Source: a virus. From it: DNA of 18,842 nt. Positions 10,299 through 12,701 of this stretch are shown here, piece by piece (the first letter of the stretch is position 1; each line of letters starts with the position of its first letter). Made by a program: the position numbers and the translations under genes. The notes under the pieces were generated by a model. It ran no database searches. It saw nothing but the letters and a program-made list of their open reading frames with translations, and was not told the DNA's origin. Location of the stretch: UHGV virus genome UHGV-0125022; one strand, given 5' to 3'.

Positions 10299-10483
10299 AC
10301 GCCACAATTCAAACGATACCAGAGCTTCTTATCCAGACACGAGGCAATCAGACCGAAGTGGCGAGGATGCTTTCCTGCGCAAGAGGAACAGTGCTCAAGT
10401 ACAACCGAGACAGAAAAGGCGAGCGTCACGTAATAGTTAACGGCGTCCTGATGGTCAAACAGGGCAAGAGGGGTAGACCATGA
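10295..10483 (+). CDS. ninH: NinH-like protein
   Basis: TIPELLIQTRGNQTEVARMLSCARGTVLKY resembles lambda NinH as recalled. Located just before Q. Confidence 0.75.
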   Translation: MNATIQTIPELLIQTRGNQTEVARMLSCARGTVLKYNRDRKGERHVIVNGVLMVKQGKRGRP

Positions 10484-11103
10484 GACTCGAAAGCGTAGCT
10501 AAATTTCATTCGCCAAAAAGCCCGATGATGAGCGACTCACCACGGGCTACGGCTTCTGACTCTCTTTCCGGTACTGATGTGATGGCTGCTATGGGGATGG
10601 CGCAATCACAAGCCGGATTTGGAATGGCTGCGTTCTGTGGTAAGCACGAACTCAGCCAGAATGACAAACAAAAAGCCATCAACTATCTGATGCAATTTGC
10701 ACACAAGGTATCGGGGAAATACCGTGGCGTTGCAAAGCTTGAAGGAAATACTAAGGCAAAGGTACTGCAAGTGCTCGCAACATTCGCTTATGCGGATTAT
10801 TGCCGTAGTGCCGCGACGCCGGGAGCAAGGTGCAGAGATTGCCACGGTACAGGCCGTGCGGTTGATATATCAAAAACAGAGCTGTGGGGGAGAGTTGTTG
10901 AGAAAGAATGCGGAAGATGCAAAGGTGTCGGCTATTCAAGAATGCCAGCAAGCGCCGCATATCGCGCTGTGACGATGCTAATACCCAACCTTACCCAACC
11001 AACCTGGTCACGCACTGTTAAGCCGCTGTATGACGCTCTGGTGGTGCAATGCCACAAGGAAGAGTCAATCGCAGACAACATTTTGAATGCGGTCACACGT
11101 TAG
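10480..11103 (+). CDS. Q: Late-gene antiterminator Q (lambda Q type)
   Basis: 207 aa. Sequence matches lambda Q over essentially the full length as I recall it, including the zinc-binding CRDCHGTGR...CGRCKG. A lambda-like pR' follows. Confidence 0.9.
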   Translation: MRLESVAKFHSPKSPMMSDSPRATASDSLSGTDVMAAMGMAQSQAGFGMAAFCGKHELSQNDKQKAINYLMQFAHKVSGKYRGVAKLEGNTKAKVLQVLATFAYADYCRSAATPGARCRDCHGTGRAVDISKTELWGRVVEKECGRCKGVGYSRMPASAAYRAVTMLIPNLTQPTWSRTVKPLYDALVVQCHKEESIADNILNAVTR

Positions 11104-11145
11104 CAGCATGATTGCCACGGATGGCAACATATTAACGGCATGATA

Positions 11146-11183
11146 TTGACTTTTTGAATAAAGTTGGGTAAATTTGACCCAAC
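11146..11183 (+). promoter_or_regulatory. Late promoter pR' with qut region (-35 TTGACT 11146-11151, -10 TAAATT 11169-11174, 17-bp spacer)
   Basis: TTGACTTTTTGAATAAAGTTGGGTAAATTTGACCCAACGATGGGTTAAT is near-identical to the lambda pR'/qut sequence as recalled. Confidence 0.75.
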
Positions 11184-11206
11184 GATGGGTTAATGCCTTC
11201 GTTTAA

Positions 11207-11241
11207 AGCCCCGCGGATAACACCGTGGGGCTTTTGCGTTT
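11207..11241 (+). terminator. tR'-like terminator about 25-60 nt downstream of the pR' start
   Basis: AGCCCCGCGG / CCGUGGGGCU 10-bp stem with one G-U pair and an AUAACA loop, followed by UUUGCGUUUC. Confidence 0.6.
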
Positions 11242-11253
11242 CTGGAGGTAACG

Positions 11254-11272
11254 GCGAGGCGCTACCCTCGCC
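11254..11272. terminator. Second hairpin (GGCGAGG / CCTCGCC, 5-nt loop) between tR' and the 3' end of the convergent minus-strand gene; possible bidirectional terminator
   Basis: 7-bp perfect stem read from the sequence. Weak T-tracts on both sides. Confidence 0.4.
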
Positions 11273-11278
11273 TTAACA

Positions 11279-11695
11279 TTAAGGGAGGGTTTTCATTACG
11301 CTATCAATCTCCCTTCCTTCAAATCTTGAAGTCCAGCCGCAGGAGCCGCAATGGTAAGGAAAGTCATCGAACCCGCTACCGACCTGTTTAAGACAGTTGG
11401 GGCAATAAACCGCGCTGATATACCCACCCGCGGGATTTTTTCTAAAGGCCGCACCCATGTGCTCGACAAACTCATCCTTTGCCCGATAAGCCGCTATTTC
11501 CTTCTCAAGTTCTACGTTCTTGGCTTTCGCCTCGGCAAGTTCTGCTATGGTGGCAGCATGGGCTTTTTGAAGTACGTCGATCTGCTCTCCAATGAAAGCG
11601 ATGCGCTCGCGCAGGACCTCGTTACTTTGCACAGCAGAAAGCGCGCCGATCCCGTTTTTAAGGGACGCGATAAGTAATCCTACATCCATGGTCAT
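11279..11695 (-). CDS. Hypothetical cargo protein: N-terminal coiled-coil-like region plus C-terminal CxxC...CxxC zinc ribbon, convergent to late transcription
   Basis: 138-aa ORF. C-terminal CPNC-x14-CGSC. N-terminal heptad-like, Ala/Glu/Lys-rich segment. AGGGA Shine-Dalgarno. Start may be M1 (11695) or M3 (11689). Confidence 0.6.
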   Translation of the reverse strand: MTMDVGLLIASLKNGIGALSAVQSNEVLRERIAFIGEQIDVLQKAHAATIAELAEAKAKNVELEKEIAAYRAKDEFVEHMGAAFRKNPAGGYISAVYCPNCLKQVGSGFDDFPYHCGSCGWTSRFEGREIDSVMKTLP

Positions 11696-11944
11696 TCCCT
11701 AATTGTCTGTGGAATGACCAATTTAGCAATTTCCTTTATCTGTGGAAAGCAGGGAAACCACGCGCCGGGCGTGGATAAATATCCCGGTATTGAATCGACT
11801 GTTGGCTGCCGCTTGGCGGCCTTTTTCATTTCAGGCTCACGGGAATCATCCGCTACGTGCTTTGTTGATAAATCCATCCCGTGAAGCCTGACCCTTTTCA
11901 AACACACACACACAGCGCCATCCGAAAAATCGGAGGTGAGGCCT

Positions 11945-12268
11945 ATGAAAATGCCATACAAACAAGATTTCATCGCTGCGCTACTTGCCGCCAAGGAGCA
12001 GGGTATTGGTGCAATGCTGGCTTTTATCATGGCGTATCTGCGTGGTCGCTATAACGGCGGCGCGGTAACAAAAACGCTAATTGATGCGCTGATGTGCGCG
12101 ATGATTGCCTGGTTCGTTCGTGACCTTCTGGACTTTATCGGCCTGAGCAGCAACCTCGCCTACATAGCCAGCGTCTTTATTGGATACATCGGCACCGATT
12201 CGATCGGCAATCTTATTAAAAAACTTGCAGCAAAAAAGGCGGGAGTTGACGATGCAAACCAGTCCTGA
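11945..12268 (+). CDS. S: Class I holin S (lambda S type) with dual-start motif
   Basis: [27 protein letters not shown] resembles lambda S105/S107 as recalled. GGAGGTGA Shine-Dalgarno. ORF track begins at an in-frame GTG at 11936. Confidence 0.9.
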
Positions 12269-12701
12269 CGGAATTGCTCTGATAAAAAAATTTGAAGGTT
12301 GTCGGCTGACTGCTTACCCCGACCCCGGAACGGGAGATGCGCCGTGGACCATCGGCTATGGCTGGACCCATCCGGTTGACGGAAAGCCAGTAAAGCGCGG
12401 TATGACTATCGACCAGCAAACCGCTGACAGGCTTCTGAAAACAGGGCTTGTTGGTTATGAGAATGACGTGCTGAAAGTTGTCAGGGTGAAGCTGACACAA
12501 GGCCAGTTCGACGCACTGGTGTCGTTCGCTTACAACGTTGGGTCGCGTGCTCTTTCCACATCTACACTGCTGAAAAAGCTGAATGCTGGCGATATAAAAG
12601 GCGCGGCAGATGAATTTCTGCGCTGGAATAAATCAGGCGGAAAGGTGATGCCGGGGCTCACGAATCGCCGCAAGGCAGAGCGAGCTCTGTTCCTGTCATG
12701 A
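12252..12701 (+). CDS. R: Endolysin, GH24 phage lysozyme (P22 gp19 type; not the lambda R transglycosylase)
   Basis: C-terminal [11 protein letters not shown] and the overall sequence resemble P22 lysozyme as recalled. No SAR-like N-terminal hydrophobic segment. GGAG Shine-Dalgarno before the ATG at 12252. Confidence 0.85.

Follow-up and report, generated by a model that had tools for sequence, protein, structure and literature searches.

A probable lambda-type late-gene switch with a P22-type short terminated leader in virus genome UHGV-0125022

Overview of the probable late-gene switch

The region that follows the Q gene of virus genome UHGV-0125022 is, at a probability of about 0.88, a lambda-type (type 1) Q-dependent late-gene switch in the 'short leader' form of phages P22 and HK97, as judged from homology. 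The feature corresponds to the P22-type late leader and terminator that have already been annotated, and it is both known and ordinary. The window (the whole stretch of 18,842 nucleotides that was analysed) belongs to a mosaic lambdoid phage, with an early region resembling those of mEpX1, HK97 and Louie and a late region resembling that of a Citrobacter phage. Homology of every element of the switch, the strength and covariation of its terminator hairpin and the boundaries of the modules around it were obtained here.

Cassettes of this type are defined by a Q gene, the late promoter pR', a pause element, a terminator and late genes (PMC9388147). Following the model of pausing, Q loading and read-through described for such phages (PMC9388147, PMC8022706), RNA polymerase would initiate at the constitutive pR' (A11181) and would pause early, as sigma-70 re-binds the -10-like AACGAT at +1 to +6. 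Without Q, transcription would terminate at a hairpin and U-tract at +25 to +61, giving an RNA of approximately 58-61 nt. Q protein from the early-right operon would bind between the -35 and -10 elements and load onto the paused polymerase, which could then pass the terminator (tR'), a gene lying antisense to the late transcript (the 'cargo' gene) together with its own hairpin, and a further terminator at 11804-11831, to reach S (11945), R, Rz and the head genes. For the phage of the window, pausing, termination and Q-dependent read-through are inferred from the biology of lambda and P22.

The Q gene, late promoter and predicted pause element

The Q antiterminator gene (10480-11103, plus strand) encodes a lambda-type protein of 207 aa (Pfam PF03589, E 1e-57). 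Protein comparison showed that it is identical to lambda Q at 206 of 207 positions (99%) and to gp23 of P22, the Q protein of that phage, at 200 of 207 (97%). Lambda Q and P22 Q are both of type 1 and are mutually interchangeable (PMC8022706). The gene lies directly upstream of the promoter, with a gap of 42 nt between its end at 11103 and the -35 hexamer. Late lysis and morphogenesis genes are located downstream on the same strand, the first being the holin gene S (11945-12268, plus strand, dual starts at 11945 and 11951; Pfam PF05106, E 9e-30). Endolysin and Rz genes follow by homology to Louie, in which the corresponding genes are annotated as holin, endolysin and Rz.

The late promoter pR' (11146-11174, plus strand) consists of a -35 hexamer TTGACT (11146-11151), a spacer of 17 nt and a -10 hexamer TAAATT (11169-11174). 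A promoter scan taken by itself was not significant for this site (one site versus 2.8 expected by chance); the call is significant because of the homology to lambda and the location just 3' of a Q gene whose product is 99% identical to lambda Q. Alignment showed that the promoter matches the pR' of lambda, P22, HK97 and HK620 column for column, and the stretch aligned with it is annotated as P late or pR' in P22 and HK620. Between lambda and the window, identity over 11140-11203 is 90.6% (E 2e-16).

A predicted Q-binding element, the 'qut' string TTTTGAATAAAGTTGGGTAAA of 21 nt, occupies 11152-11172 (plus strand) and so would place Q binding between the -35 and -10 elements of a sigma-70 promoter. 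It carries two mismatches to the lambda string TATTGAATAAAATTGGGTAAA. The annotations of HK phages quote this lambda string and call the versions in these phages 'similar to lambda Qut site with 2bp mismatch', and the string of the window is identical to the form in HK97, HK620 and Emek. An earlier reading of the letters alone (hereafter the sequence-only reading) had described a lambda-like pR' and qut here with Q loading preserved. The presence and position of both elements, with these two mismatches and this degree of identity to lambda, bear out the description.

The predicted transcription start is A11181, the first A of AACGAT on the plus strand, which aligns with the 'P late RNA 5' nt' of P22 and with the start of lambda. 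The same AACGAT, from 11181 (+1 to +6), is the putative sigma-dependent, -10-like pause element. In lambda the polymerase pauses at +16/+17, which would place the predicted pause of the window at 11196-97. Start site, pause and efficiency of termination are assignments by homology. The sequence AACGATGG is invariant across all seven aligned phages, consistent with a pause element at this place, and no gaps are needed to align promoter, Q site and AACGATGG with lambda, P22, HK97 and HK620. Pause elements of the AACGAT type, resembling a -10 element, cause the sigma-dependent pause needed for loading of Q (PMC9388147).

Two further features of this part of the region were observed. An inverted repeat (GTTGGGT-AAATTTG-ACCCAAC, 11163-11183) extends across the -10 element and the predicted start, with perfectly matching arms in the window, HK620 and Emek but not in lambda. 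TTTATTC follows it on the minus strand, where it was flagged as terminator-like in the scan. It could be a stop for transcripts of the cargo strand before they enter Q, or it could be incidental. Secondly, the first 23 nt of the leader (11181-11203) are predicted to form a small hairpin (AACGA...UCGUU). Lambda, P22-type and window-type leaders all have TCGTT at +19 to +23 despite differing bases between the two arms, and this conservation may reflect the sequence needs of the pause site rather than RNA structure.

The predicted tR' terminator and terminated RNA

The predicted tR' (t late) intrinsic terminator, hairpin 1, lies at 11205-11241 on the plus strand and was recognised by folding and homology. 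Its stem of 12 bp pairs 11205-16 with 11223-34 around the loop ATAACA (AAAGCCCCGCGG-ATAACA-CCGTGGGGCTTT, 11205-11234, equivalent to +25 to +54), with the G-C part of the stem beginning at +28. TGCGTTT is found directly 3' of the stem, the tail TTTTGCGTTT ends at 11241 (+61), and the U-tract is interrupted (UUUUGCGUUU). With position 11205 corresponding to +25, the distance of about 25 nt between predicted start and first hairpin given by the sequence-only reading is correct. The hairpin folds at -22 kcal/mol (z = -5.6; none of 200 shuffles was as good). The entire RNA from +1 to +61 is predicted to fold into the small 5' hairpin and the terminator at -30 kcal/mol (z = -4.2). The RNA terminated without antitermination is expected to be approximately 58-61 nt, and a product of about 60 nt would, as that reading also held, be far shorter than the 194 nt of lambda.

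Hairpin 1 was missing from the output of a simple built-in terminator scan, probably because that scan extended the stem through the AAA/TTT pairs and was left with too few T residues in the tail. A purpose-written scan did detect it. This second scan misses the long-looped tR' of lambda, and long-leader loci were therefore classed by sequence. Hairpins homologous to hairpin 1 carry a terminator annotation in P22, Emek and HK225 (rho-independent in the latter two). Hairpin 1 and its tail would supply the intrinsic terminator that such a cassette has 3' of its pause site and ahead of its late genes.

Covariation was assessed with 14 distinct hairpin alleles aligned in register. Standard pairs occupy 95.7% of cells over these alleles, compared with 24-68% in controls with the 3' partners shifted by 1-3 columns. 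All alleles share the stem base (GCCC/GGGC), one stem pair occurs as three standard types (U-G, C-G and U-A), and two pairs of the upper stem are changed on both sides between the P22/HK97 and the window/HK225 alleles (A-U to C-G and U-G to G-C). Two such double-sided changes were also reached by 232 of 500 shuffles. The covariation evidence is modest, because there are essentially two groups of alleles. The allele of the window is the HK225/mEp237 form; it differs by one base from those of Louie and HK225 (A versus C at 11205) and by one further base from that of mEp237. Compared with the P22 form, which has been studied by experiment, it has another upper stem and loop and begins 3 nt nearer to the transcription start.

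We also considered whether the predicted RNA of about 60 nt might be a small RNA with a regulatory role in trans in lysogens. StxS of Stx phages and IsrK of Gifsy-1 have the same kind of origin, arising in the lysogen from a constitutive late promoter by termination a short distance 3' of it; pR' is constitutive in lambdoid lysogens, and the terminated product works as a small RNA in Stx phages and in Gifsy-1 (PMC7547250, PMC4825925). A stable 3' hairpin with a U-tail and the predicted 5' hairpin would suit such a role. However, the pause element already accounts for the first 23 nt, and the remainder is the terminator, the upper stem and loop of which are free to vary among alleles, leaving little sequence beyond pause element and stem base for a conserved seed. 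Searches of Rfam returned nothing anywhere in the window at gathering scores and no family match in the leader (11181-11241) at E up to 1, and the leader has no sequence match to StxS or IsrK. Unlike the product of the window, StxS is processed from a pR'-tR' transcript of 258 nt and is tied to a different Q of 144 aa (PMC7547250). A trans-acting role is unlikely on this evidence, and the leader is better read as part of a Q-dependent late-gene switch of the P22/HK97 form.

Distribution of the short leader

The sequence-only reading had judged the leader unusually short by the standard of lambda, and on this point comparison with other phages did not support it. In the region of P22, HK97, HK022, HK620 and Emek, as in the window, the AACGAT start and pause element is followed immediately by an intrinsic terminator. 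A blastn search with 11140-11245 against a phage collection gave 121 matching records, 82 of which cover at least 80% of this query, itself spanning promoter and terminator, including P22, HK97, HK022, HK620, Emek and g341c. Lambda and its derivatives match this query only to 11203. The homologous terminator is found at +28 to +31 in the same six phages and in many others, and alignment of HK97, HK620 and Emek places the hairpin in the same register as in the window.

An exact-pattern scan of IMG/VR for the -10 region and pause element gave at least 120 loci (not de-replicated), 114 of them with enough flanking sequence. Among the matches listed, the short leader is present in 55 of these 114 loci, and the remainder have a lambda-type leader. 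The 55 short-leader loci among the matches listed have a G-C stem beginning at +30 to +32 and a T-tract beginning at +53 to +56. The lambda leader of 194 nt is the other common variant.

P22 offers a close annotated comparison. Its RefSeq record places P late/PR' at 37852-80, qut at 37871-900 and the 5' nucleotide of the RNA at 37887 ('similar to phage lambda P late RNA 5' nt'), and labels 37917-45, which is +31 to +59, as 't late or tR'; antiterminated by gene 23 protein'. The stem begins at +31 in P22 as against +28 in the window, and the T-tract ends near +60 in both. Over 11140-11241 the window is 83-84% identical to P22 and HK97, in register. Unlike P22, the window has the upper stem and loop of the HK225, mEp237 and Louie allele, and its leader differs at +8 to +18. 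In P22 and HK97 approximately 300 nt of non-coding leader separate tR' from the holin gene, where the window has the convergent cargo gene and a second terminator. A passage in Sy et al. (PMC7547250), citing Roberts, Roberts, Hilliker and Botstein (1976), mentions that phages 21, phi80, 82 and P22 make short antiterminated RNAs from their late promoters. Among the RNAs listed in a 2026 survey of P22 small RNAs none fits the leader of about 59 nt; the P22E RNA of that survey starts just 3' of t late.

Module boundaries around the terminator

The shortness of the leader had been attributed to an insertion of cargo in place of most of its length; a lambda-like ancestral leader, about 194 nt long, would have been truncated and left abnormally short, still able to load Q. 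Lambda resembles the window in its -35, -10, spacing, start and pause element, in a Q site that differs by two mismatches and in a Q identical at 206 of 207 residues, and differs from it in a tR' with a T-tract at +188 to +193, giving the RNA of 194 nt. Homology to lambda stops at +23 (11203), and a homology search found lambda leader positions +24 to +194 nowhere in the window, so that the leader is not of the 6S RNA type. In favour of truncation are this limit of homology, positions +8 to +14 of the window (GGGTTAAT), which are lambda-like rather than P22-like, and the usual co-occurrence of the hairpin allele of the window with cargo.

The ends of homology, placed by local blastn of 11100-12300 against all fetched loci, nevertheless argue strongly against it. 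Lambda-type loci match 11100-11203 only, and then again from approximately 11945. In cargo-free short-leader loci the match extends to the end of the T-tract at 11240-11244 and resumes at approximately 11945, the start of holin gene S. P22, HK97, HK022, HK620 and Emek have the same architecture and the homologous terminator with no gene between terminator and holin, so that cargo-free phages have leaders of equal length. Phage mEp237 has the hairpin allele of the window without cargo; it diverges after CTGGAGG (approximately 11248), where a different, forward-oriented gene is found. Homology through the T-tract together with this divergence therefore places the insertion point downstream of a complete terminator: the left boundary of the cargo lies past the T-tract (approximately 11245), and nothing has been lost from the leader as compared by sequence. 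Truncation is for these reasons very improbable, and the preferred reading remains a P22/HK97-type leader that is short in its own right.

From about -1 onwards the leader of the window is the HK225/mEp237 form. The Q protein of HK225 and mEp237 has 271 aa and is 50% identical to that of the window over the N-terminal 125 aa only, and the -35/Q-site region of these phages also differs from that of the window. As they share the leader but differ in Q, the leader-terminator module is common to different Q specificities. HK225 shares 11165-11948 with the window, and its hairpin 1 is annotated 'rho-independent terminator'. Louie is 98% identical over 11100-12300, including Q, pR', both hairpins and cargo. 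No complete E. coli genome was found to contain the exact arrangement, the best match being ECONIH4 (98.2% identity over 94% of 11100-12000).

The junction formed by the 3' arm of hairpin 1, CTGGAGG and a second hairpin (hairpin 2) was found as an exact match in 16 IMG/VR loci. Across these loci and E. coli prophages the junction block stands behind four upstream contexts, namely lambda-type pR' (the window, Louie, ECONIH4 and three IMG/VR loci), HK225-type, EC17CM13-type and EH09-18-41-type, the last of which has a different 5' arm (GCCCTGGCG-GAAA-CGTCGGGGC). Hairpin 1 is itself the mosaic junction (11208-11245): its 3' arm, T-tract and CTGGAGG are constant, and its 5' arms vary yet stay complementary. 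With the same block behind four contexts, the terminator is therefore a recurrent recombination boundary.

Hairpin 2 and the convergent cargo gene

A second hairpin following the first had been counted as part of the leader. It is indeed present at 11253-11272 (GGCGAGG-CGCTAC-CCTCGCC; -13.6 kcal/mol, z = -3.6), but it belongs to the convergent minus-strand gene as its 3' hairpin, 6 nt past the stop codon at 11279-81. It has no U-tract on either strand, the plus strand continuing with TTAACATT. In Citrobacter prophages a GGCGAGG...CCTCGCC stem also lies directly after the stop codon of the homologous gene, there in the early-left operon, and in mEp237, which has hairpin 1 without cargo, hairpin 2 is absent. 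Because the stem travels with the gene into other operons, hairpin 2 is the 3' end of the cargo and lies outside the pR' leader.

The cargo ('moron') gene (11279-11689, minus strand) encodes 136 aa from a conserved ATG at 11689, or 138 aa from 11695, with a coiled coil and a C-terminal CPNC...CxxC zinc ribbon. Its protein has 66 homologues in Enterobacterales and Vibrio, which are 58-96% identical and share the start MDVGL... (at 11689), the long coiled coil and the invariant CPNC...C..C zinc ribbon. These homologues and conserved features, together with an AlphaFold model of pLDDT 90, indicate that the gene is real. No match was found in Pfam, NCBIfam or PADLOC, PHROGs returned a family of unknown function (phrog_1244), and a Foldseek search of the model against PDB gave nothing with E below 0.4.

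The cargo is absent from P22, HK97 and mEp237 and occurs elsewhere at varied sites with its own flanking signals, as is typical of a moron. It is found behind four late-promoter types and also in prophages of Morganella, Vibrio and Citrobacter, where it occupies the early-left region, with the repressor gene on one side and kil/gam/recT on the other, and again runs antisense to its neighbours. In Citrobacter the copies have retained the 3' stem and approximately 100 nt of upstream sequence. Compared in this way, the cargo is a separate mobile unit with its own putative promoter, gene and 3' hairpin, inserted in opposite orientation just 3' of the terminator.

The 5' region of the cargo (11690-11748, minus strand) was read from the sequence and is conserved upstream of the Citrobacter and Morganella homologues. 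Directly before the start codon, a perfect inverted repeat of 9 bp (GGTCATTCC-N12-GGAATGACC, 11690-98 and 11711-19) lies over the ribosome-binding site. A putative promoter (TTTCCA-17-TAAATT, 11748 down to 11720, minus strand) agrees with the consensus at 8 of 12 positions and did not appear in the scan output. Two copies of the motif TTCCACAGA, approximately 30 nt apart, are present on the minus strand (in the region of 11690-11719 and 11740-11748), and the motif is also retained by the homologues in Morganella and Citrobacter. The repeat and motif could serve translational control or be an operator.

The convergent orientation raises the question of which strand hairpin 1 serves, as it could be a bidirectional terminator that mainly ends transcription of the cargo gene, its place after pR' being secondary. 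On the minus strand it folds at -19.3 kcal/mol with an upstream A-run and a downstream UUU; hairpin 2 has no U-tract, so a further stop would be needed before antisense transcripts enter pR' and Q; and the 3' arm of hairpin 1, hairpin 2 and cargo form one block behind four promoter types. Against this, the minus-strand tail is only UUUAAACG, a G-U pair of the plus strand becomes a C-A mismatch on the minus strand and weakens the stem, and the hairpin is kept in many phages that have no convergent gene. A primary role in ending cargo transcription is accordingly improbable, and hairpin 1 is best regarded as the tR' of the late-gene switch.

In every context examined the cargo is antisense inside an antiterminated operon, whether the late leader (the window, HK225 and E. 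coli prophages) or the early-left region (Morganella, Vibrio and Citrobacter prophages). One tentative and rather doubtful suggestion, made by analogy, is that this convergent layout is functional: the cargo would be on in the lysogen from its own promoter, shielded by tR' from the constitutive pR', and would be silenced by the antisense, Q-antiterminated late transcript during lytic growth. The tR' hairpin might under such an arrangement also stop cargo transcripts from entering pR' and Q. In P22, the sas antisense RNA is processed from the PL transcript and acts on sieB expressed from the prophage. This pair, sieB and its antisense RNA sas, is mentioned in PMC13397905 and provides the analogy for silencing of the cargo.

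The remainder of the late leader

A second plus-strand intrinsic terminator is predicted in the late leader at 11804-11831 (GGCTGCC-GCTT-GGCGGCC followed by TTTTTCATTT; terminator scan, -14 kcal/mol). Its hairpin (11804-11821) lies between cargo and holin. Phage mEp237 has another hairpin allele at this site before the same holin leader, which makes 11804-11831 a second example of a mosaic junction at a hairpin. The 3' arm and the next 120 nt constitute a conserved holin leader, which is common to mEp237, Gifsy-2 and many Klebsiella phages.

Two other candidates in this stretch were considered and set aside. A minus-strand ORF of 112 aa (11692-12030) overlaps the holin start and the plus-strand terminator and is probably not coding. 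It is not called in HK225 or in RefSeq (PGAP) E. coli prophages, a shorter version is annotated in Louie, and its sole match is a small PHROG of unknown function. A weak isrK-like Rfam match was also seen at 11749-11826 (plus strand; 21.2 bits versus a cut-off of 50, E 0.015-0.035, when 11100-11960 was searched with E up to 1). Two of its three helices fit, including the terminator at 11804-11821. With a score below the cut-off, a span across a module junction and nothing comparable when HK225 and Gifsy-2 loci were searched with E up to 0.1 (where the larger search space would raise the E-value), this match is probably due to chance.

Implications for lambdoid phages

These comparisons correct a lambda-centred expectation: in phages that have a lambda-type Q and pR', the 6S RNA of 194 nt is no more common than a leader of about 60 nt that ends shortly after the pause site. 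For annotation, it is useful that the terminator hairpin is a recurrent mosaic junction found behind four Q/promoter types, and that a hairpin after pR' need not be part of the leader, hairpin 2 being the 3' end of a convergent moron. If the doubtful suggestion of a functional convergent layout were true, the antisense position of the cargo would fit a lysogen-only function, for example superinfection exclusion, that is switched off in lytic growth.
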